Below are positions 2,056-62,789 of a DNA stretch of 63,842 bases, piece by piece; the stretch's first letter is position 1; every line of letters starts with the position of its first letter. The notes beneath the pieces were generated by a model. That model was not told the origin of the DNA. It saw nothing but the letters and a program-made list of their open reading frames with translations, and searched no databases. This stretch comes from a bacterium (GTDB taxonomy: Bacteria; Patescibacteriota; Minisyncoccia; UBA6257; GWB1-50-10): contig DAIDAY010000002.1 in the NCBI GenBank assembly GCA_027310365.1, forward strand, positions 1 through 63,842. Direction: 5' to 3'. The position numbers were made by a program, and so were the translations under genes.

Positions 2056-2117
2056 ACAGCCGGTCGCAAGGTATATAATATAGTAAAAGTGAAAGGTCGC
2101 CTTTACAAGTTTTGCTC

Positions 2118-2522
2118 ATGATTCAATTTTTATTCATTTTCAGCGATTGGGGGCTCCTCATCTTGCGATTTGTCCTTGGACTTATCATGGCGAAGCACGG
2201 TTTTCCGAAGATGAAAGATTTGAAAACGACGGGCGCGAGTTTCGGGGATATGGGCTTTAAACCCGGCCGTTTTTGGGGGACGCTTGTCGCTCTCGCTGAA
2301 GTTGCCGGCGGTCTAGCGTTAATACTCGGATTTCTCACCCAGATTTTTGCCGTCATCCTCCTCATCGAGTTTGTGGTCATTCTTTTGAAAGTAAAACGGA
2401 AAGCGGGTTTCGTCGGCGGTTATGAATTTGAACTCCTGATTTTCGCAGCGCTTTTCCTCCTCGTGCTCTTCGGCGCTGGCTCCCGAAGTTTGGATTGGGC
2501 GCTCGGCCTCGTCGTTTTTTAG
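2118..2522 (+). CDS. DoxX-family membrane protein
   Basis: The track ORF begins at a TTG (2112); the first ATG is at 2118. LLILRFVLGLIMAKHGFPKM and four hydrophobic segments are typical of DoxX. Confidence 0.7.
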   Translation: MIQFLFIFSDWGLLILRFVLGLIMAKHGFPKMKDLKTTGASFGDMGFKPGRFWGTLVALAEVAGGLALILGFLTQIFAVILLIEFVVILLKVKRKAGFVGGYEFELLIFAALFLLVLFGAGSRSLDWALGLVVF

Positions 2523-4618: not shown

Positions 4619-6415
4619 ATGTCTCTCAAAGCTATAGAAAAAAGAATGAGGAAGTACCGGAAGAGTACGGAGAGGAATTACTTACCTCGCTGGATAAAAA
4701 GAACCCTTACGGGAGCGATCGTCGTCGGTTTGCTGATCATTGTCTTTGGCGCCGCTTTCATCGTGTATTATTTGAACGAGCCCCGAGGCGTCGACTTGGC
4801 AGTGTCAGCCCCTTCGGATGTCGCGCGGGGCGTTCCTTTTGAGCTGGACGTTAACATCACAAACATTTCGGGGGCCCCGATGCAAAATGGTTTACTCACC
4901 GTGACATTGCCGGAAGGTCTCCTCCTGTGGAGCTCGAAGATCAACGGCAATATTTATTCGGAGAGCATCGGCAGCGTCGGTACCGGCAGTCTGACGAAGA
5001 AGGTGTATAAAATCATTGCGGTGGGAGGCTTGAATTCCCGTCAGGACCTTGCGGTTTCTTTTTCTTATCTCAATCAAAACGGAACGCGGTTTGAAGTGAA
5101 AAGCGGCGCAGCCGTTCTCGTTTCGAGCGAGGTGGTGAGCGCGAGCGTCGTCAAACCCGACCAGATTCTGAACGGCTCATCCTTCTCTTTTACGGTGAAC
5201 TATGTCAACAATTCCGATTTCGATTTTCCCAATCTGGTATTGGAAGCCGATTTTCCTGATTCTTATACCTTTGATTCGGCTTCTGAGCCGCCTTCCTCGC
5301 TTTCGAATGTGTGGCAATTGGGATCCTCTCTTGCCCGTTCAACGGGAACCATTGCGATCAAGGGAAAATTTTCCAATTCCAGCGCTTCGTCGTTTGACAT
5401 CCCCCTCAAATTTTTCACCGTTTTGAACGGGAAGAACTATCAGGTCGCCGATTACGACGCTTCCTTTTCTCTCTCGCCGTCACCCATTGGGATAAGCATT
5501 TTTACCAACGGAATGGACCATTATGTCGCGAAGCCGGTGGACACTTTGAATTACGTCATCCAGTACAACAATATGAGCGGCATCGCCCTCACCAACGTCA
5601 CGGTGAAAGCTGCCTTGAGCGGTTTTGGCAATTGGTCGTCGGTGAAGACGGACGGCAGTTTCGATCCCAACGTTAGGACAATAACGTGGACGAGCGCCAC
5701 GACGCCCCCTTTGCAATTTATTTCCCCCGGCGGGACCGGGAGACTCAACTTCAGCCTGAACGTAAGTTCCGCAATCCCGACATCTCTCCAGGGATTGTCG
5801 ACCAAGAACCTGTACGTAAGAGTCGTCGCTTCCGTAAGTTCTCCCTCTGTGCCGTACTATGTTTCGGGCAACAGCACGTTCGCGGAGACGTCGGTCGAGA
5901 CGAAAATTTCAAGTTTGGTATATTTGAACGCTCGGGCGCTTTTGCAAGATCCGGGAAGCGGCATCGTCAATGCGAGGAGTTTCCCTCCGAAAGCAGGGGT
6001 GCCCACCACTTATACTCTCCACTGGCTTTTGAGCAATTATGGGAACGACTTAAGTGAAGTGAAAATCTCCGCGCCGCTGCCGCCGGGCGTTACTTTCACC
6101 GACATCGCAAAAAGTAACATTGCATCCTCGACGCCGGCGTACGATACCTCGACCCAGAGCATGGTTTGGAACGTCGGCGATGTTGTGGCGAACAGCGGCC
6201 TTATCACCGGTCCCATCGAGGGTATTTTTCAGGTGCAAGCGACGCCGGATGCGAGCGATATCGGTTCCTATAAAACGATTTTGGGAAAAACGATTTTGAG
6301 CGGCAACGACAATTTTACGGGGACGTCCGTCAACGCTTCGTATGAGCCGCTGACGACGCTTCTTCCCACCGACCTTACGGTTTCGCCCGGAGAGGGGGTC
6401 GTCACGCAGCGATAA
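4619..6415 (+). CDS. membrane-anchored extracellular protein with repeated beta-rich segments (function unknown)
   Basis: N-terminal TM (LTGAIVVGLLIIVFGAAFIVYYL) followed by a long Ser/Thr/Asn/Val-rich sequence with recurring 'L.Y.V.Y.N.S' style segments. No catalytic motif was seen. Confidence 0.6.
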   Translation: MSLKAIEKRMRKYRKSTERNYLPRWIKRTLTGAIVVGLLIIVFGAAFIVYYLNEPRGVDLAVSAPSDVARGVPFELDVNITNISGAPMQNGLLTVTLPEGLLLWSSKINGNIYSESIGSVGTGSLTKKVYKIIAVGGLNSRQDLAVSFSYLNQNGTRFEVKSGAAVLVSSEVVSASVVKPDQILNGSSFSFTVNYVNNSDFDFPNLVLEADFPDSYTFDSASEPPSSLSNVWQLGSSLARSTGTIAIKGKFSNSSASSFDIPLKFFTVLNGKNYQVADYDASFSLSPSPIGISIFTNGMDHYVAKPVDTLNYVIQYNNMSGIALTNVTVKAALSGFGNWSSVKTDGSFDPNVRTITWTSATTPPLQFISPGGTGRLNFSLNVSSAIPTSLQGLSTKNLYVRVVASVSSPSVPYYVSGNSTFAETSVETKISSLVYLNARALLQDPGSGIVNARSFPPKAGVPTTYTLHWLLSNYGNDLSEVKISAPLPPGVTFTDIAKSNIASSTPAYDTSTQSMVWNVGDVVANSGLITGPIEGIFQVQATPDASDIGSYKTILGKTILSGNDNFTGTSVNASYEPLTTLLPTDLTVSPGEGVVTQR

Positions 6416-6699
6416 AAAACCCCGATCCCCCGCAGAGACCTCCCTTCACCATCATGCATCCTCGCTCATCGTCATCCGCAGCGGAATATGCGGAGCTTCA
6501 CTCCGTCGCCTCAAAAATTAGTAGGTACTGAATTTTGAGGCGAGTTCGGGATTCAAACACAGTCCCAGTCCCAGTTGTTTTCTCGCCTCTTCCTCTTCGC
6601 CTTCCTGCGCAGGCGGGTCGCTCCGGAGACAGCCTGAGCGAGGGATGCCGGTTGAGTGGTTTGGCACGGGATAGGTTTTAATGTACCATTGAGACGAAC

Positions 6700-8025
6700 A
6701 TGGATATCGGGGAAAAGGTGGCGAGTTTGGCGAAGCGAAGAGGATTTATTTATCCGGGGAGCGAAATTTACGGCGGCCTTGCCGGCACGTGGGATTACGG
6801 CCCGTTGGGCACCGAGCTCAAGCGCAATATCAAGAACGAATTCTGGAAATCGATGATCCAGGAACGGAGCGATGTCGTTGGGCTCGATGCCGCGATCATC
6901 ATGAACCCGAAGGTGTGGGAAGCATCCGGCCACTTGGAATCGTTTTCCGATCCGCTCGTGGAATGCAAAAGGTGCCATCACCGGTTCAGGGCCGACCATG
7001 GTGAAGGAAAGAAATGTCCGGACTGCGGCGGAGAGCTCACGGCGCCCAAAAAGTTCAATTTGATGGTTGAGACGTACCTCGGCGTGATTGAGGGCGAAAA
7101 GCAAAAAACATATCTCCGGGGAGAAATAACCCAGGGTGTCCATGTCAATTTCAAAAATATTTTATCGTCCACGCGCGTGAAAATCCCGTTCGGTGTCGCC
7201 CAAATCGGTAAGGCTTTCCGGAATGAGATAACGCCCGGCGGTTTCACCTTCCGATCGCGCGAATTTGAACAAATGGAACTCCAATACTACGTGAAGCCCG
7301 ATGACAAGGAATCCATGAAGCAGTTTGAATACTGGAAAAAAGAACGGATGGATTGGTATGTTTCGCTGGGAATAAACAAGAAAAACCTGCGATTCAAGGA
7401 ACACGCGAAGGACGAACTGGCTCATTATGCCAAAGCCGCTTTCGACATCGAATACAATGCCAAAGGGGAATGGAAGGAGATGGAAGGAATCCATCATCGC
7501 GGCGATTGGGATGTGAGTCGGCATCAGAAATTCTCGGGCGAGGACATGACATACTTCGACGAGGAAACGAAGGAGAAATTTCTCCCCTATATTATTGAAA
7601 CATCCGGCGGTGTTGATCGGGCGACGCTCTTTTTTCTCATGGATGCGTACGAAGAAGAAAAAGTGAAAGAAGGGGAAACAAGAGCGGTTCTGCGCTTGCA
7701 TCCGAAGCTCGCGCCGTACAAGGTGGCGGTTTTCCCGCTCCTCGCAAACAAGCCGAAACTTGTCGATGTCGCGAAAAGAATCTACGACGATTTGAAAAAA
7801 GATATGATGGTTGCGTGGGACGAGCGGGGAAACATCGGGAAGCGGTACCGCACGCAGGATGAAGCGGGAACGCCCTTCTGCGTCACGGTTGACTTTGACA
7901 GTCTTGGGAATGATGACGTAACCGTACGCGACCGGGATACCATGAAACAAGATCGTGTAAAAATCAAGGAGCTTGATTGGTATTTAAAAGAAAAGATTGG
8001 GGGGAAGAGTAAAGAGGGTAAATAG
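6700..8025 (+). CDS. glyQS: glycine--tRNA ligase (alpha2-type)
   Basis: GSEIYGGLAGTWDYGPLGTELKRNIKNEFW N-terminal signature. Class II motifs and an anticodon-binding C-terminus (VAVFPL...). Confidence 0.95.
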   Translation: MDIGEKVASLAKRRGFIYPGSEIYGGLAGTWDYGPLGTELKRNIKNEFWKSMIQERSDVVGLDAAIIMNPKVWEASGHLESFSDPLVECKRCHHRFRADHGEGKKCPDCGGELTAPKKFNLMVETYLGVIEGEKQKTYLRGEITQGVHVNFKNILSSTRVKIPFGVAQIGKAFRNEITPGGFTFRSREFEQMELQYYVKPDDKESMKQFEYWKKERMDWYVSLGINKKNLRFKEHAKDELAHYAKAAFDIEYNAKGEWKEMEGIHHRGDWDVSRHQKFSGEDMTYFDEETKEKFLPYIIETSGGVDRATLFFLMDAYEEEKVKEGETRAVLRLHPKLAPYKVAVFPLLANKPKLVDVAKRIYDDLKKDMMVAWDERGNIGKRYRTQDEAGTPFCVTVDFDSLGNDDVTVRDRDTMKQDRVKIKELDWYLKEKIGGKSKEGK

Positions 8026-50480: not shown

Positions 50481-50510
50481 AGGATATACCCCCACCCCCT
50501 ATATTGTCAA
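50481..50510 (-). promoter_or_regulatory. copA promoter with a C/G-tract operator in the spacer
   Basis: Minus strand reads TTGACA-ATATAGGGGGTGGGGGTA-TATCCT, followed by the GGAAGGA SD. The core ATATA-G5-T-G5-TATAT lies at 50484-50504. Confidence 0.6.
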
Positions 50511-50814
50511 GAGGCCGGAGACGTCCATCGTCCTCGCCCGGCGTCTCAACGATTGCCGTTCTTTTTTGCGCGATTGCGCGTCATGGCGCCGGTTTGCATT
50601 TTTTCCGGATTCGATGTTCATGGGTGCCCGATCACAAGAATGCGAAGATCGATGCGAACGACAGCTCCTCAAGCGGAACTCCCCGAAACCGAAACGCCCG
50701 AAACGGCTTTCAAATGCCATACCGCCTCGACAGAGCCGGGAGATACGGCGGTGAGCGCAAGAAAGCGATAAGAAGAAAAGGCCGAGAAGGCGCATATCGC
50801 ATGATGGTTGGGCG

Positions 50815-51968: not shown

Positions 51969-52442
51969 TTAAAAATTCAGTTGCCAAGTAAAAACTCTCA
52001 CCGCATCGGCTATTCCGGTTATTTTCAATTCAATCGAACGGGAGGGTAGCGCAATTGGGTTGAACGCAAGCGTTCCTTCCCGGTGGTGGCCGCCGACGGG
52101 CCCGTCCCAGCTGATCGGTTTGTATTCTTTTCCTTGATCATCGATGAGAATCGCGGACTTCGTGAGATCTTGATCTAATGCCACCGAATGCGTATTCATG
52201 ACGATATCGAATTTCCACCCGCCAGGTTGGGCTGAAAGATCAACCGGCGTTACCGCGATCGTAACTCCGCTTTGATTATTGGTTTTCGTCTCCCACTGTT
52301 TTGGTTGAGAGCCGGCTCGTCCCCGGTTTTGCTCAACCGGCGGCGATTTCGCAAACGGAACGCCGTTCAAACCGGCGACTATCGCAACCGCCGCCCCAAC
52401 GACCGCGACGGCGGCCGAAAGATAAAGATATTTTTTATTCAT
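51969..52442 (-). CDS. secreted/anchored beta-rich protein with a GGHH motif (function unknown)
   Basis: A signal anchor, then VTIAVTPVDL...WKFDIVMNTHSVAL...ISWDGPVGGHHREGTLAF. Confidence 0.55.
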   Translation of the reverse strand: MNKKYLYLSAAVAVVGAAVAIVAGLNGVPFAKSPPVEQNRGRAGSQPKQWETKTNNQSGVTIAVTPVDLSAQPGGWKFDIVMNTHSVALDQDLTKSAILIDDQGKEYKPISWDGPVGGHHREGTLAFNPIALPSRSIELKITGIADAVRVFTWQLNF

Positions 52443-52875
52443 GGCGTTTCTTGAAACGAATTATTTTATTGCCGATAAAGGCGATCCCGCCGAGATTGAA
52501 AGCGAGTCCGATCCAGAAGAACTGCGTTTGGTACTGAGCGACAAAAGTGACGACCCCGATGGTTCCCAGAACCGGAAGGATGTTCACGAGATAATGCGTA
52601 CAGCAGGAAATCATCGAAAGCGCGGAGGTCGTTCCAGTTACAGCAACCGTCTTGCCCGCGCTGTTTCTTTCGACCAGTTGTTTCAAGCGGGAGTACAACC
52701 CGATTTGAATGCCGAAGCCGACTGCGAGGCTGACGATGAAGTACCAAAAAGCGGCGAACTGGCTTTGAGCGAAATTCCATCCCGAAACGAGCGTGAGCGC
52801 CGTAAAATAAATCCCGAGCAAGATCGCGCTGGCGGCAACCCCGTTTAAAAAAGGTTTTATGCGGTTGTTTGACAT
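52435..52875 (-). CDS. 4-TM membrane protein with an intramembrane SCCTH motif (same family as 60764..61315)
   Basis: The ATG at 52875 gives MSNNRIK.... VGFGIQIGLYSRL and TGTTSALSMISCCTHYLVNILP align with the motifs of the CxxC paralogs. Confidence 0.6.
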   Translation of the reverse strand: MSNNRIKPFLNGVAASAILLGIYFTALTLVSGWNFAQSQFAAFWYFIVSLAVGFGIQIGLYSRLKQLVERNSAGKTVAVTGTTSALSMISCCTHYLVNILPVLGTIGVVTFVAQYQTQFFWIGLAFNLGGIAFIGNKIIRFKKRHE

Positions 52876-52879
52876 GGCG

Positions 52880-56107: not shown

Positions 56108-56136
56108 ATCCTATACCCCCATACCCTATATGTCAA
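56108..56136 (-). promoter_or_regulatory. repressor-operon promoter with a C/G-tract operator; near-leaderless
   Basis: Minus strand reads TTGACA-TATAGGGTATGGGGGTA-TAGGAT, then 5 nt, then the ATG (56102). It shares about 30 bp with the copA promoter. Confidence 0.6.
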
Positions 56137-56199
56137 GGGCCAGGATCCGCGCAACCAAAAAAGCCGATGCCGGAAAAGCGTAGGTATTGGATCCGCCCG

Positions 56200-57513: not shown

Positions 57514-58053
57514 TTATCCAATGAATGCTTTGATCGCCTTTTCGTCAAAACGTTCCAGTGTTTCCGATTGCCCCCGTTTGGTCAAAACGATTTTCGCGTC
57601 GTAGCCATTCGGGGCAAGATAAACATTGTCCGGATATCGTTTTATGAGGTCGGTGAGTTTGGCAACAAGATCGGATGCGCAGGAATATTTTTTACAGTTG
57701 TATTGCACGATAACGCCGGGTTTGCCTCTGCCATCGGCGTGTTCGAGCATGTGGCGCTGCGTTCCGTCAGGTAGGGGACGGTCGGTGATATGCGTCGCAG
57801 GCATATCCTCCGTGTGGCCCTGCACGATCGTCGGCGGCAGGATCGGGCGTGTCGAGATATACCAGCCAAGGCTGAAAATCGTTCCGCCCGCGATCAGAAC
57901 GGCCGAAGCGGCGCGCACCGCCGTTTTCAACGAGCGCTTACGCCGCAAAGCCAGGCGTCCTTCCGCTTTGCGCAGCTTCCTTTGCTGGTAGCGTTCCCGT
58001 CGGGACGGTTGCCCGGCCCCCGCATTGCGCGTTTTTTCCGCCGATTCGTTCAT
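57514..58053 (-). CDS. DUF3105-like membrane-anchored protein
   Basis: PPTIVQGHTEDMP...RHMLEHADGRGKPGVIVQYNC follows the recalled DUF3105 pattern (PPxxGxH...HxLEHG-V-Y). Confidence 0.65.
   Translation of the reverse strand: MNESAEKTRNAGAGQPSRRERYQQRKLRKAEGRLALRRKRSLKTAVRAASAVLIAGGTIFSLGWYISTRPILPPTIVQGHTEDMPATHITDRPLPDGTQRHMLEHADGRGKPGVIVQYNCKKYSCASDLVAKLTDLIKRYPDNVYLAPNGYDAKIVLTKRGQSETLERFDEKAIKAFIG
57611..57840. repeat. 230-bp near-identical repeat, copy 1
   Basis: Matches 60337-60566 at 228 of 230 positions by hand alignment (differences at 57638 and 57769). Confidence 0.9.
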
Positions 58054-58555: not shown

Positions 58556-60217
58556 TTATACGCCACACCCTCCGCCTCCTTGCTTTTGCGGCACCAAGTT
58601 GGGATTCTTGGCGATAATCTCTTGAAGCGGCCGGGCGATGTTTTTCGCCCAACCGGGGCCACTGGAATAATCGAAGCCAATAATTTCTTTAGGATCGACG
58701 TTTTCCCAATCGATGTTTTTGGCGAGCTTGTAATACAACGCAGTCTGGATGTAGGTTTGCGGAAACCAGAAGGAATTGAACTGCAGCGCAACTCGGTACA
58801 AATCGTCTGTGGAAAGCCCCTGCGCCGCGCCGAGTTCGATCAAGCCGAGCATGGCTGAACCGTGGTTGCAATCCTGGAAAAACGCGGAGTTGCCGCAGCA
58901 GGGACGGTAGACGTTTTGCGCCACCTCGAGGGCGACCGCCTCCTGTTCCGGCGTAAGCTGAACAATTTCGTATTTGTTAAAATACTTGCCGCCGTTGTCC
59001 TCCCGACCCAGCGTCCAGCCGCCGGTCGAAGCGAAGTCGAACAGCGATTTCCCGTTCACCGGGCTCTTTTCGTTGAATTGGGTTTTATTGGCAAGCCCGA
59101 GCGGCCATAGCAGATTGATCATGATGCCGGCATTGTCGGCGTTGATGGCAAGCGGCTCGCTGGAGGAGGTGGTGAGCAGCGCAAGCTCCTTCTCGGTTAT
59201 GCCGCGGTCTTTGTATACATCTTTGAATTTTGCGATATCGATGATGCCGTTCTGCGCCAATTTGACCACCGCGTCACCCAACACTATTTTCGTTTGAAAC
59301 CCCCGCCGGGGCAGCACTTTCGCGACCACTGCGCCGTAGAGCTGATTGCCGGTTCCGGCATTCCGGACGCCGCTCACCGCGTTCATCAGGAGCGTTCCAT
59401 CTTTTGCGGCTGCGCTTGCCGCGACTTGTTCTCGGCTCCACAGCGGCGCCGCTGAAAAAAGGATCAGGAAAAAAACCGCAAGAAGCGTCCGATAGGACAG
59501 CAATGAGTCGGATTGCTCCGGGGATTTTTGTCCGCCCGCCGCCGGCTCGACCGCGCAGGTCTCGCACGCTTTCGCTTGAGAAAGTTTCCTCGTGGAGAGG
59601 AAAAGCGCGGCTCCGAAGAACGCCGCGCTCAAGAATTTCAATTCGAGGCCCTTGAACGGCAGGACGGCAACGCCACCGGCGATGCCGATCGCCGAAAGAA
59701 GGAAAGAACCGCAGATGGGGCAGGCCGCCGCAAAGGCGCCGAATATTGCGCCGAACGCATTGCCACCTTGATCTTTTATGCTGTGCAGCCCGGAGTTCCG
59801 CCATGCATAAACGGCTACCGCCAAGCTCATGCCGAAAAGAATCATACTCAGAAGAGTGAAGAGGACATACGGCCAGAAATAGAGTGGCACGTTCCCGTAC
59901 ATCCCAGAGAAAGTGACCCACGTGGTGGTTTTTGAAAGCAGCCACCAGTAAAGAAGCCCGAGCGCCAGCGCGCCATCGATTGCCACGAAAAGATACAGCG
60001 GCTGCCCGAATATCGTTTTCAGGGGAGAAGCGTGAAGCTCATGCGCCGCTTTTTCTTCGTCGCCGCCATTCTCTGCGGCGTGTGTGGTGATCTCGATGTT
60101 GCAGGTATGGCGCTCCCTGCACCACGCCTCGCACTTTTCCGCCCATTCTTTTTCGGCATACCTTAATCCGCATTCCGCGCATTGATACGATGTTCCTTTC
60201 TTCGTTATGACTTGCAT
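58556..60217 (-). CDS. fusion protein: zinc ribbon plus 4-TM CxxC module plus extracytoplasmic YRPCCGNS domain
   Basis: The N-terminus is YQCAECG...CEAWCRERHTC. The TM region has ILFGMSLAVAVY and AAACPICGSFLLS. The C-terminal 300 aa are paralogous to 30917..31918 and end GGGGCGV. Confidence 0.75.
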   Translation of the reverse strand: MQVITKKGTSYQCAECGLRYAEKEWAEKCEAWCRERHTCNIEITTHAAENGGDEEKAAHELHASPLKTIFGQPLYLFVAIDGALALGLLYWWLLSKTTTWVTFSGMYGNVPLYFWPYVLFTLLSMILFGMSLAVAVYAWRNSGLHSIKDQGGNAFGAIFGAFAAACPICGSFLLSAIGIAGGVAVLPFKGLELKFLSAAFFGAALFLSTRKLSQAKACETCAVEPAAGGQKSPEQSDSLLSYRTLLAVFFLILFSAAPLWSREQVAASAAAKDGTLLMNAVSGVRNAGTGNQLYGAVVAKVLPRRGFQTKIVLGDAVVKLAQNGIIDIAKFKDVYKDRGITEKELALLTTSSSEPLAINADNAGIMINLLWPLGLANKTQFNEKSPVNGKSLFDFASTGGWTLGREDNGGKYFNKYEIVQLTPEQEAVALEVAQNVYRPCCGNSAFFQDCNHGSAMLGLIELGAAQGLSTDDLYRVALQFNSFWFPQTYIQTALYYKLAKNIDWENVDPKEIIGFDYSSGPGWAKNIARPLQEIIAKNPNLVPQKQGGGGCGV

Positions 60218-60236: not shown

Positions 60237-60749
60237 TCATGTGCCGATGAATTTCGCGATGGCTTGCTCGTCAAAGCCGCCGAGAACCTGCAAAGCGTCG
60301 AGTTTCGTCAAGATAATTTTACCATCATACTCGCCGGGGGCAAGATAAACATTGTCCGGATATTGTTTTATGAGGTCGGTGAGTTTGGCAACAAGATCGG
60401 ATGCGCAGGAATATTTTTTACAGTTGTATTGCACGATAACGCCGGGTTTGCCTCTGCCATCGGCGTGTTCGAGCATGTGGCGCTGCGTTCCGTCGGGTAG
60501 GGGACGGTCGGTGATATGCGTCGCAGGCATATCCTCCGTGTGGCCCTGCACGATCGTCGGCGGCAGATTGGGACGAGTGGAAGCGAACCATACGAGACCG
60601 CCCACTGCCCCGAGGGCCGCGGCGACGCCTAACGTTCGGGCGGCGGCTTTTGTGGAACGGTGTTTCATTGCGGCATCCTTTCGAGCCGCAAGCTTTTCCT
60701 GCTTTCTCGGCTCATGCCGATCTTGATTCGTCGATTGTCGAGATGTCAT
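60237..60749 (-). CDS. DUF3105-like membrane-anchored protein (paralog)
   Basis: The ATG at 60749 gives MTSRQSTNQ.... The central 77 aa are nearly identical to 57514..58053. Confidence 0.65.
   Translation of the reverse strand: MTSRQSTNQDRHEPRKQEKLAARKDAAMKHRSTKAAARTLGVAAALGAVGGLVWFASTRPNLPPTIVQGHTEDMPATHITDRPLPDGTQRHMLEHADGRGKPGVIVQYNCKKYSCASDLVAKLTDLIKQYPDNVYLAPGEYDGKIILTKLDALQVLGGFDEQAIAKFIGT
60337..60566. repeat. 230-bp near-identical repeat, copy 2
   Basis: See copy 1. The offset is 2726 bp in direct orientation, and both copies lie inside DUF3105-like genes. Confidence 0.9.
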
Positions 60750-60763
60750 GTTTTTGGAGAGGA

Positions 60764-61315
60764 TTATCGTCGGTTCGTTTTGCAGACCGCCGGATGCTGA
60801 ATTTGTTTTGCCGTGAGGTGAAGGGAAACGGCGAGTAAGACCACCGCCAAGATGCCGAATTCCCCGCCGCCGAGCGGCAGAAAAGCCAAGATGCCGGACG
60901 CGCCCGCGAGCGAGAAAATGCTCGTTAAGAAGAGCGATCCGCAAGCGGCGCAACCCATGCCCGAAACGCCGCTCGTTATGCCGAAAAAACCGATGCCGAA
61001 TCTCGCCCGCTCGATCCCGTCAATCCTGCGTCGCAAGAAGTAGAAAATCATGGCGACATTCATCCCGAACAGAATTGCCGTAGCAACGGTGTATGAGGCG
61101 GAAAGCAGGGTAAAATTCGTCGCGATTGATCCGATAAGATTCAATGGCAGTTCAAGTTTATCCGAAAAAGACATCCTGGGATGGCCCATGATGCGGATGA
61201 TGAGCGGAATGTTGGGGAGCCACGTGGCAAACACAAAAACCACCGTGCTTATGCCAAGGGCAAGAATGACGTATGTGGGTTTTCGGAAAACCTTTTGTAC
61301 GGCTTGAGGCGCCAT
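60764..61315 (-). CDS. 4-TM membrane protein with an intramembrane CAAC motif (unknown family)
   Basis: The ATG at 61315 gives MAPQAVQKV.... ILFGMNVAMIFYFL and GVSGMGCAACGSLFLTS, plus a C-terminal Cys after TM4. Confidence 0.65.
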   Translation of the reverse strand: MAPQAVQKVFRKPTYVILALGISTVVFVFATWLPNIPLIIRIMGHPRMSFSDKLELPLNLIGSIATNFTLLSASYTVATAILFGMNVAMIFYFLRRRIDGIERARFGIGFFGITSGVSGMGCAACGSLFLTSIFSLAGASGILAFLPLGGGEFGILAVVLLAVSLHLTAKQIQHPAVCKTNRR

Positions 61316-61316
61316 A

Positions 61317-62078
61317 TCATCCGCCCTGCAGGGCAAGTTCGATTAATTGTTTTATCGCGGCGTAAGGCTGTGCGCCGGCCAGCAACTGTTTGCCGATGAT
61401 AAACGACGGCGTGCCGGTCACGCCGAACGATTCGCCTTCCGCCCGGTCGGCATCCATTCCCTGCTGGTACCGATCTCCTTTGCTCTGCACAAGCGCCAAG
61501 ACTCTCGCGGCATCGCTTGCGCCGATGGCCTGCGTCGTGAAGCTCATAATGGCATCCTGCGTTGCCCAGCCGGTATTTTCTATGCCCTGATTATTGTAGA
61601 TCGCCCTGTGCCAAGCGTAGAATTTATCCGGCGCCGCTTCCCAGACGGCGCGGCCGAATCGGCCGAGCGTTTGAGAATCCGGCCCCAAGAACTGAAAATC
61701 CTTATAGACGAGCTTGATTTTCCCGGTCTTGACGTATTCTTCGTAAAGCTGGGGCATGGACTGCGTCTCGAACCTCCGACAGAAGGGGCATTGGTAGTCG
61801 AGCCAATAGGCCACCGCAAGCGGCGCGTTTGGGTTTCCGATGAAAGGCTGGCCTTCGATTTTCACCTTCGAGATGTCCGCGGTTTGCGCTGCCGGTTGCT
61901 GCGGTTGCGCTCCCGCATTACCGCTGGCGATCCCGGGGGCGGAGTTGTTTTTACCAACGGAGTAAATCACCGATCCGCTGATCAAAACGCCGGCGACAAG
62001 TATGGAAATCGGAAGCATCCAACTGCCGCCGCTCGGCCTTCCATTTTGCAATTTTTCCTCGTAGTTTTGATTTTTCAT
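61317..62078 (-). CDS. DsbA-family thiol:disulfide oxidoreductase, membrane-anchored
   Basis: The ATG at 62078 gives MKNQNYEE.... A signal anchor, then the YQCPFCRRFE active site. Confidence 0.85.
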   Translation of the reverse strand: MKNQNYEEKLQNGRPSGGSWMLPISILVAGVLISGSVIYSVGKNNSAPGIASGNAGAQPQQPAAQTADISKVKIEGQPFIGNPNAPLAVAYWLDYQCPFCRRFETQSMPQLYEEYVKTGKIKLVYKDFQFLGPDSQTLGRFGRAVWEAAPDKFYAWHRAIYNNQGIENTGWATQDAIMSFTTQAIGASDAARVLALVQSKGDRYQQGMDADRAEGESFGVTGTPSFIIGKQLLAGAQPYAAIKQLIELALQGG

Positions 62079-62168: not shown

Positions 62169-62615
62169 CTAGCGGGCGGCGCCGGAGTCGTAGATTCGGG
62201 AATGTAAAATTCCTCGAGAGAATACCAGCCTCACATGGTCGAAAAGCGCCGCTTCGGGATGTTCCCGCGCATAGAGATGCAGGTCGGCCAGTTCCCGATC
62301 GTCGGCGTCCCGCCGGAACGGAAAATGCGCAAGAGCGAACATCAGCATGAAACCCAGCGCAAGCGACGTGAAAACATCGCGCGCTTCCCGCGGCGTCGCC
62401 AGCAGATTGTCTTTCCATGAGCCGATGTATTTTGAAATCGTCGTAGTGCAGCATTTCTGTTGACCGGTGGCGTTGAGCGCCGCTGCGTTGACGCTCGTGC
62501 TGTGCATCGGCGCGTGGCCGGCAAACCCCGCGCAGGCGAATCCAAAAACAAGAACACCGAGAACGATAAAAACTATGGGAAATTTTATCAATTTTTGGAT
62601 ACCTGCGAGAGCCAT
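62169..62615 (-). CDS. small Cys-bearing 2-TM membrane protein (paralog of 33522..34037)
   Basis: TM1, QQKCCTTT, TM2, then FRRDADD...VFSRGILHSRIY. It is the first gene of the right-hand operon. Confidence 0.5.
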   Translation of the reverse strand: MALAGIQKLIKFPIVFIVLGVLVFGFACAGFAGHAPMHSTSVNAAALNATGQQKCCTTTISKYIGSWKDNLLATPREARDVFTSLALGFMLMFALAHFPFRRDADDRELADLHLYAREHPEAALFDHVRLVFSRGILHSRIYDSGAAR

Positions 62616-62670
62616 AACTACATTATAGAAAACATTAACTGCGTTTTACAATGAGTTCGCCCGTAAAAAC

Positions 62671-62703
62671 GGGGTTATCCACAGCAACGTCGTGGATGAC
62701 CCC
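62671..62703. terminator. bidirectional hairpin at the right edge of the metal/thiol block
   Basis: GGGGTTATCCAC-AGCAACGTC-GTGGATGACCCC (12-bp stem, one G-U position). The plus strand continues TTTCTTTGTTT; the minus strand continues GTTTTTAC. Confidence 0.6.
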
Positions 62704-62789
62704 TTTCTTTGTTTCCAAAACAGCAAAGTAAAGTTATACACTTGATTTATCACACATTATCGTATTTGAGTCCCCAGATATTAGGACGA

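Follow-up and report, generated by a model that had tools for sequence, protein, structure and literature searches.

A four-helix membrane protein that is very probably the partner of a CPFC DsbA-like protein in Patescibacteria, and a candidate trans-membrane thiol relay

Which membrane protein serves an envelope DsbA-like protein when the usual partners are missing? The question is raised by a gene pair of only 1.3 kb, at 60764–62078 of contig DAIDAY010000002.1 (GenBank GCA_027310365.1), a stretch of 63,842 nt that was analysed whole and is called the window here. In this pair, a gene for a DsbA-like thiol-disulfide oxidoreductase is followed directly by a gene for a 183 aa four-helix membrane protein of an unnamed family, here called tm4 (60764–61315, minus strand). 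In envelope thiol chemistry DsbB, VKOR and now MauE oxidise, and DsbD, CcdA and ScsB reduce. The original prediction stated that no DsbB- or VKOR-like sequence is present in the block; this is confirmed, and neither was found anywhere in the 747 kb genome, which is 98.8 % complete. It further proposed tm4 as a candidate re-oxidase of the DsbA-like protein. The comparisons reported here indicate that tm4, although unrelated to the known partners, is very probably the membrane protein that serves an envelope thiol-disulfide oxidoreductase, and that a relay of cysteines across the membrane seems to describe it better than re-oxidation in the manner of DsbB.

The order first described, a DsbA-family gene with a CPFC site and then a 183 aa gene with four transmembrane (TM) helices, is borne out. 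The DsbA-like gene (61317–62078, minus strand) encodes 253 aa from the ATG at 62078, and its TGA stop (61319–61317) is followed by one base and then by the tm4 ATG at 61315. Because this junction reads TGAtATG, the two genes lie 1 nt apart with no overlap. The tm4 start is supported because relatives begin at the same residue (M..QALQKVF). The DsbA-like protein matches Pfam Thioredoxin_4 (E 5e-26) and DSBA (E 6e-13), and has an N-terminal TM anchor, a CPFC active site at residues 97–100 (61779–61790, minus strand) and a Thr-cisPro at residues 223–224. Its nearest solved structure is C. diphtheriae TsdA (4pwo/7unn, also CPFC; E 1e-20 over 175 residues), with BdbD, S. aureus DsbA and ScsC next. 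No dedicated membrane partner of TsdA is known to us. The likeness to TsdA (4pwo/4pwp, 7unn/7uno) extends to a membrane-anchored DsbA fold, the CPFC site and the Thr-cisPro loop, and TsdA shows reductase/isomerase activity in vitro (PMC9974433). It differs in being actinobacterial and stress-induced, and it is not known from a copper island. Elsewhere in the genome that holds the window, another CPFC DsbA-like gene adjoins a TrxB-like reductase.

The pairing extends well beyond this genome. Across 80 species-representative tm4 loci, the functional pairing is well supported because in 76 of them tm4 is immediately preceded by a DsbA-like gene, typically with gaps of 2–20 nt. CPFC is kept in 75 of these 76 partner DsbAs, though they are only 22–60 % identical to that of the window. 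Among the four loci with no upstream DsbA, one falls at the end of a contig and one in masked sequence; in L049 and L067, tm4 has no adjoining DsbA, but copper proteins are nearby. In a tree of DsbA proteins, a branch with 100 % support has the DsbB-adjacent (CEAC) and VKOR-adjacent (CPAC) DsbAs on one side and every tm4-linked CPFC DsbA on the other, and because of this division tm4 can be said to have its own DsbA clade. Judged from these sequence comparisons, the CPFC DsbA-like protein very probably has tm4 as its dedicated partner in the membrane. All membrane proteins known to us to be obligatorily paired with a DsbA or thioredoxin fold (DsbB, VKOR, MauE, DsbD, CcdA and ScsB) act as its redox partners. 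For MauE, the role of redox partner to a DsbA-type protein has been described in bioRxiv 10.64898/2026.03.05.709764.

The family itself is large. A word-indexed search returned 860 relatives, all annotated as ‘hypothetical’, and an exhaustive search gave 1012 clusters at 50 % identity. The tm4 pattern occurs in 295 species-representative genomes, nearly all labelled Parcubacteria, Paceibacterota or Patescibacteria. The window tm4 is 45–77 % identical to its relatives and has all of the family motifs; like them, it is about 180 aa long, with four helices, a G-C-x-x-C-G motif, the P147/G150/E152/F153 loop and a C-terminal Cys, and its gene directly follows one for a DsbA-like protein. No description of the family was found in the literature on DsbA in the candidate phyla radiation (CPR), on DUF3105, or on DsbA, VKOR and DsbB in Patescibacteria. 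Méheust et al. (2019) reported MdbA-like proteins to be enriched in CPR and sometimes to adjoin VKOR (PMC6744442).

An AlphaFold2 model built from a 58-sequence alignment has a mean predicted local distance difference test score (pLDDT) of 86.5, with long helices at residues 13–43, 70–104, 110–145 and 151–173 and a loop helix at 50–67. The earlier placement of a CAAC motif in the third TM helix, with another Cys just past the fourth, is correct by both the sequence and these helix boundaries. C122-A-A-C125 lies in the G-x-G-C-x-x-C-G-S motif of helix 3 (60941–60952, minus strand), and Cys178 lies in the conserved tail P-x-V-C (60782–60784, minus strand), five residues past helix 4. G121, C122 and C125 are invariant in 58 of 58 diverse members and Cys178 is present in 57; G112, G119, G126, P147, G150, E152 and F153 are, like Cys178, kept in at least 90 % of members. 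Three further near-invariant sets of columns are Cys-free, namely W-L-P-N (32–35), G-S-I-x-T-N-F-T (62–69) and the loop motif L-P-x-x-G-x-E-F (P147, G150, E152 and F153; 60859–60876, minus strand), the last of which would lie on the outer face, to judge by the charge distribution. Together these motifs may form a conserved, Cys-free extracytoplasmic surface.

A second copy of the module is present in the window, at 59558–60028 (minus strand) within a 553 aa fusion protein (p553; 58556–60217, minus strand). It carries CPIC plus CETC and is homologous to tm4 (hhalign 98 %, E 2e-13, 157 columns). p553 consists of an N-terminal Cys-rich zinc ribbon, the tm4 module, a fifth TM helix and an extracytoplasmic Cys/His domain. 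Three paralogs had been counted in the window, of which hhalign and a profile search of the whole genome support only two module copies, those of tm4 and p553. The SCCTH protein at 52435–52878 was considered as a third and rejected (hhalign 7 %).

Is tm4 then a divergent member of a known family? No Pfam or NCBIfam model matches it, and its 58 relatives are likewise without a Pfam match at E values up to 1. A sequence-profile search of the PDB gave nothing meaningful (a chance match at E 0.43 only, and no DsbB), and a Foldseek search of the AlphaFold2 model against the PDB gave a best E of 1.3 and TM-scores of 0.13–0.26, with no DsbB or VKOR fold. The profile comparison suggested with the original prediction, carried out by hhalign, shows no homology to DsbB (PF02600; 0.3 % against eight Patescibacteria DsbBs), VKOR (PF07884; 1.0 % against six VKORs of the same class), MerT (PF02411; 0.2 %) or MerC (PF03203; 6.9 %, with only a 13-residue motif around GCAAC aligned). 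The MerC and MerT sequences for comparison were taken from annotated plasmids. Membership of the CcdA/DsbD_TM families (PF02683, PF13386) was also rejected (hhalign 0.7 % against the CcdA of the window; no DsbD_TM match among the 58 members), as was that of MauE (PF07291; 0.4 % against an HMBD-MauE protein from one of the islands, the motif of tm4 being CxxC and not the CXC(F)(G) of MauE).

The placement of the cysteines is also distinctive. Over the 58 members, net charge is +2.1 at the N-terminus, +3.6 in the loop 94–108 and +1.5 in the C-terminal tail, with +0.5 in the loop after helix 1 and −0.8 in the loop 147–153. By the positive-inside rule both termini of tm4 would be cytoplasmic, with which the natural fusions agree, and Cys178 would lie just past the membrane on the cytoplasmic side, as judged from the charges and from three kinds of natural fusion. 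About 19 residues of helix 4 are hydrophobic, and helix 3 is a long glycine-zipper of 36 residues. From the register of the modelled hairpin, C122 and C125 would be near the level of K170 (residues 122–125 level with K170–Q173), in the inner half of the bilayer. The two extracytoplasmic Cys pairs of DsbB are not present, as tm4 has three conserved Cys, with the CxxC inside helix 3 and Cys178 in the positive tail. Nor is the arrangement that of VKOR, with a CxxC at the outer end of TM4 and a Cys pair in a loop, or that of CcdA/DsbD_TM proteins, with six or more TM helices and one Cys in each of two symmetry-related helices; tm4 has four helices and both Cys of the CxxC in one. The catalytic cysteines of DsbB, VKOR and MauE face outward. 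By analogy, the predicted cysteine geometry of tm4 is unlike that of these three and like that of DsbD/CcdA or of the Mer transporters.

In one natural fusion (P0234; L105 6001–7146), an S-adenosylmethionine (SAM)-methyltransferase follows the tail Cys immediately, without an added TM helix, in an operon with ArsR (HTH_5), a DUF302-glutaredoxin, YgaP-like_TM and DsbA. Two others (P0278 and P0275; L107 3599–4756 and L108 6001–7158) come after CopA and DsbA, and join tm4 to a fifth TM helix and a CCCKCW Cys-rich surface domain. Extracytoplasmic domains are joined to tm4 only via such an added fifth TM helix, in these two proteins and in p553, and a stand-alone paralog of the p553 Cys/His domain carries a signal anchor. 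Among the 8000 candidates listed by a region search, no fusion of tm4 to DsbA, thioredoxin or HMA was seen, only fusions to methyltransferase and Cys-rich domains.

What passes between tm4 and its partner can be proposed by analogy. The reading favoured here, tentatively and at somewhat less than even confidence, is that tm4 is a minimal trans-membrane thiol relay supplying reducing power to the DsbA-like protein. Electron flow would be outward: a cytoplasmic thiol donor would hand reducing equivalents to Cys178, where helix 4 ends on the cytoplasmic side, and to the CxxC in the inner half of helix 3; from there they would cross the bilayer to CPFC in the anchored DsbA-like protein, docked on the Cys-free outer face formed by WLPN, GSIxTNFT and LPxxGxEF. 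The likely clients would be surface proteins of the island that are rich in Cys or carry a Cys/His domain, which the reduced DsbA-like protein would keep as thiols for Cu(I) binding; alternatively, it may repair wrong disulfides caused by copper. The job would be the one done by ScsB–ScsC, or by CcdA with TlpA/ResA, carried out here by an unrelated protein. A thiol relay is supported by the redox role of the obligate membrane partners named above, the co-occurrence with DsbB and VKOR described below, the predicted cytoplasmic-side cysteines, the Cys/His domain found near CcdA–TlpA, and the precedents of TsdA and of the Cu(I)-binding ScsC proteins.

Several points weigh against a thiol relay. 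The DsbA-like sequence is nearer to Gram-positive oxidases and TsdA than to classical reductases. AlphaFold2 confidence is lowest exactly at the CxxC of tm4 (pLDDT 59–68), and three cysteines are an odd number for a dithiol-disulfide cascade. The islands, including that of the window, often already carry CcdA and a TlpA-like protein, and a second conduit may seem redundant. No PF00085 thioredoxin was found in the genome at E 1e-5, and no WCGPC motif; however, the CcdA homologues of the genome need a cytoplasmic donor too. The genome also encodes a TrxB-like protein, a housekeeping CcdA and, anchored to the membrane, a thioredoxin-like protein with CPHC (C2 4249–5202, 5863–6720; C5 12325–13939). 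Additionally, the fusion partners (zinc ribbon, Cys-rich domains and methyltransferase) fit the hand-over of a metal or metalloid at least as well.

The setting of the gene pair is one of metals. The window holds two P1B ATPases, CopZ, CsoR and a DsbD_2 protein, together with CcdA, a TlpA-like protein and a Cys/His surface protein, and a serine-recombinase fragment at its right edge. A P1B ATPase or CsoR is found within 6 kb in at least 49 of the 80 loci, and other neighbours encode CDF transporters and DUF305, cupredoxin-like or His-rich proteins. In 36 of 72 loci the gene that follows tm4 encodes a His-rich, Cys-rich (SCSG..GSCCSPM..CCCKCW) or DUF3105-like surface protein, the most frequent kind in that position; the vicinal cysteines (CC/CCC) of the post-tm4 proteins are more likely to be metal ligands than structural disulfides. 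A Cys/His surface domain, p333, is found adjoining CcdA–TlpA, adjoining DsbA–tm4, or fused to the tm4 module. Because only 16 of 151 genomes of the class (~11 %) carry tm4, the DsbA–tm4 pair is an accessory trait. Its surroundings are best explained as a stress island for metals, mainly copper, borne on a mobile element.

Such surroundings give weight to the rival that survives best, a metal or metalloid cysteine relay similar to MerT, MerC or MerF. A thiophilic ion (Cu(I), or Hg/As/Cd) would be caught outside by the DsbA-like protein and Cys-rich domains, and passed by way of the CxxC and Cys178 to CopZ/CopA or to a modifying enzyme; the reverse direction would also be possible. This reading is unlikely, though far from negligible. 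The GMGCAAC of tm4 resembles AMGCAAC in TM1 of MerC, and the layout of a TM Cys pair plus a cytoplasmic Cys is that of a Mer transporter. The island context described above fits, as do the fusions that join the module to a Cys4 zinc-ribbon/HMBD-like domain in the cytoplasm (p553), to CCCKCW or CC..C..H domains outside and to a cytoplasmic SAM-methyltransferase in an ArsR-headed operon, and the presence of tm4 with copper proteins and no adjoining DsbA in L049 and L067. ScsC proteins, which are DsbA folds, bind Cu(I) (PMC8900818; PMC10907172), and do so tightly (PMC8900818). Homology to MerC or MerT, however, does not extend beyond the 13 aligned residues, and no MerA was found in the genome, where a tblastn search with MerA gave only HMA-domain matches. 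The MerT/MerC-type transporter offered as the alternative in the original prediction is thus unsupported as a homologue, and it is as an analogy that it is a live rival. Import of copper would be counter-productive for a cell that has no outer membrane, and the conserved outer face offers only side chains that are hard or neutral (N, S, T and E), and no Met, His or Cys through which an ion could enter. As far as we know, no metal transporter needs a DsbA-fold partner. Among the 80 loci, MerA is represented by a single partial catalytic-domain match (L071), matches in L060 and L043 being to the HMA domain. The L071 fragment (3–368) covers the last 120 residues of a pyridine-nucleotide disulfide oxidoreductase; it has 39 % identity to MerA and lies at a contig edge ~3.6 kb upstream of DsbA–tm4.

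A true re-oxidase, that is, a non-homologous analogue of DsbB, VKOR or MauE that would re-oxidise the CPFC DsbA-like protein and pass electrons to some acceptor, is improbable. Part of the original proposal stands, in that tm4 is very probably a dedicated partner, as the 76 loci, the separate DsbA clade and the lack of DsbB/VKOR homology indicate; the role of a DsbB/VKOR analogue does not fare as well, in view of the co-occurrence with those proteins, the predicted cytoplasmic cysteines and the accessory islands. VKOR is found in 69 of the 151 class genomes (46 %) and DsbB in 26 (17 %), although such tiny genomes are commonly regarded as having neither quinone synthesis nor respiratory chains. 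One or the other is present in 13 of the 16 genomes with tm4 vs 73 of the 135 without it (odds ratio 3.7, p 0.06), a positive trend and not the complementarity expected of a substitute; likewise, of the 65 genomes with neither DsbB nor VKOR, tm4 is absent from 62. tm4 also has no resemblance to a quinone site, no DsbB or VKOR fold match and no predicted outward Cys pair.

In 13 of the 80 loci a second DsbA, of the DsbB/VKOR type (CEAC), lies beside DsbA–tm4, and in at least six of these a BdbC-type DsbB comes directly after tm4, within the same cassette. The recurrent order is DsbA(CPFC)–tm4–DsbB (BdbC-like, CVLC or CELC)–DsbA(CEAC)–PrsA-like foldase, as in L031, L037, L040, L041, L058 and L078 (about 5250–7640 in each), L099 (2737–6662) and L100 (2484–6417). 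It is often preceded by a DUF305-like protein, with a P1B ATPase or CDF transporter after it. G088 and G144 have the order p148–tm4–DsbA(CEAC)–DsbB–PrsA–DsbA(CPFC). Two types of DsbA, each beside its own membrane protein, resemble by analogy the oxidative and the reductive/isomerase arms of DsbA/DsbB and DsbC/DsbD.

In favour of re-oxidation, the genome has two CPFC DsbA-like genes with no DsbB or VKOR, and only a DoxX/MauE-like open reading frame (ORF) at 2112–2522 (plus strand; 136 aa), which scores 23.6 bits with the MauE hidden Markov model, below the cut-off, and cannot be a CXC-type MauE oxidase because it has no cysteine. Its DsbA-like protein is closest to the TsdA/BdbD/SaDsbA oxidase types, and the order DsbA-then-tm4 mirrors the DsbA-then-VKOR order seen in the same class. 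The DsbA–VKOR gene pairs of L089 and L092 overlap by 29–44 nt. In four cassettes (L029 6570–7766, L043 6576–7769, L048 and L051 6563–7768), proteins of ~397 aa encoded directly after tm4 combine a class-1 DsbA (CEAC or CEVC), a His-rich HxHADFAVYLNG...HLHDGNGDVTHKH domain and a Cys-rich tail, and no DsbB-like ORF was seen in the ~3.5 kb past tm4 inspected at L029, L043 and L051. New classes of re-oxidase are also still emerging; MauE replaces DsbB through a CXC site, and about a fifth (~20 %) of bacterial species are without a known oxidative partner (bioRxiv 10.64898/2026.03.05.709764).

Least probable, by a little, is that tm4 is a non-thiol partner, acting as a scaffold, insertase or sensor that serves the DsbA-like protein and the metal-binding proteins, with its three Cys as a cytoplasm-facing metal or Fe-S site of regulatory or structural use. 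In favour of this, the hairpin register would allow the three Cys to meet on the cytoplasmic side, the conserved outer face is Cys-free, and the N-terminal amphipathic helix is conserved and confidently modelled (pLDDT 95). Against it, tm4 has no output domain, and an invariant CxxC encoded beside an invariant CPFC speaks for a thiol chemistry common to both proteins.

The gene pair is part of a longer minus-strand array. Its first gene, at 62169–62615 (minus strand), encodes a 148 aa two-TM protein (p148) with a CC motif and a conserved C-terminal tail of the LAFxRGILNPKIY type. Relatives of p148 lie directly upstream of the DsbA gene in 18 of the 80 loci (tblastn), and form an unnamed two-TM family with FGF.C.G in the first helix, CC or C..C in the loop and LAF(A/S)RGILNPKIY at the C-terminus. 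On the other side of the pair, a gene for an anchored, His-rich DUF3105-like protein (60237–60746, minus strand) begins 17 nt past tm4 and is followed by p553. The array then continues with an anchored rhodanese, a second DUF3105-like protein (57514–58053; a weak DUF3105 match in Pfam, 68 % identical to the 60237–60746 copy) and a 267 aa membrane protein. Upstream of the array, at 62616–62720 (minus strand), there is a TTGTAA-18-TATAAT promoter-like site and a hairpin with a 12 bp stem and a T-run. CsoR-type G-tract boxes are present at 56113–56139 and 50486–50514; none was found upstream of 62615, where only a plain −35/−10 is seen. Given the missing box, the DsbA–tm4 operon may perhaps not be copper-regulated here.

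The favoured thiol relay has its closest functional parallels in ScsB–ScsC of Salmonella, Proteus and Caulobacter, and in CcdA/DsbD with TlpA/ResA/DsbC. These likewise combine an extracytoplasmic DsbA or thioredoxin fold with a membrane protein whose cysteines can be reached from the cytoplasm; ScsB and CcdA coexist with a separate DsbA–DsbB/VKOR oxidative arm, and ScsB–ScsC shares the context of copper stress (PMC10907172, PMC5524982, PMC8900818). However, tm4 has four TM helices vs 6–8 in ScsB, CcdA and DsbD, with no sequence or profile similarity to them. Its CxxC lies in one helix and is joined by a tail Cys, whereas CcdA and DsbD have one Cys per pseudo-symmetric helix, and no thioredoxin or Ig relay domain is fused to it. 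With DsbB/BdbC, VKOR and MauE, tm4 has in common a small size (four or five helices), a CxxC (or CXC) and a position beside a DsbA-like gene. It differs from them in having no second outward Cys pair, in a third Cys that is probably cytoplasmic, and in co-occurring with DsbB/VKOR rather than replacing them. With MerC, MerT and MerF it shares a Cys pair in a G/A-rich TM helix (GCAAC in the case of MerC), a further Cys that would be cytoplasmic and a mobile metal-resistance island. The CxxC of tm4, however, falls in helix 3 and that of the Mer proteins in helix 1, its extracytoplasmic partner has a DsbA fold, not the HMA fold of MerP, and the genes nearby are CsoR and P1B ATPases instead of MerA and MerR.

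The tm4 family is thus large and conserved, has no Pfam or NCBIfam model and is tied to DsbA more tightly than is VKOR in the same lineage. Its hosts cannot be cultured alone and have no respiratory chains. Whether electrons or metal ions move, tm4 would be a new protein architecture on the short list of thiol-partner membrane proteins, and would explain how ultra-small bacteria protect their surface thiols under copper stress. The chances appear evenly balanced that it founds a non-homologous class of trans-membrane thiol relay, the smallest known and the standard partner of the CPFC DsbA clade in Patescibacteria, which would move electrons (or Cu(I)) without quinones. If so, the relay would be a further solution beside DsbB/VKOR/MauE and DsbD/CcdA/ScsB.

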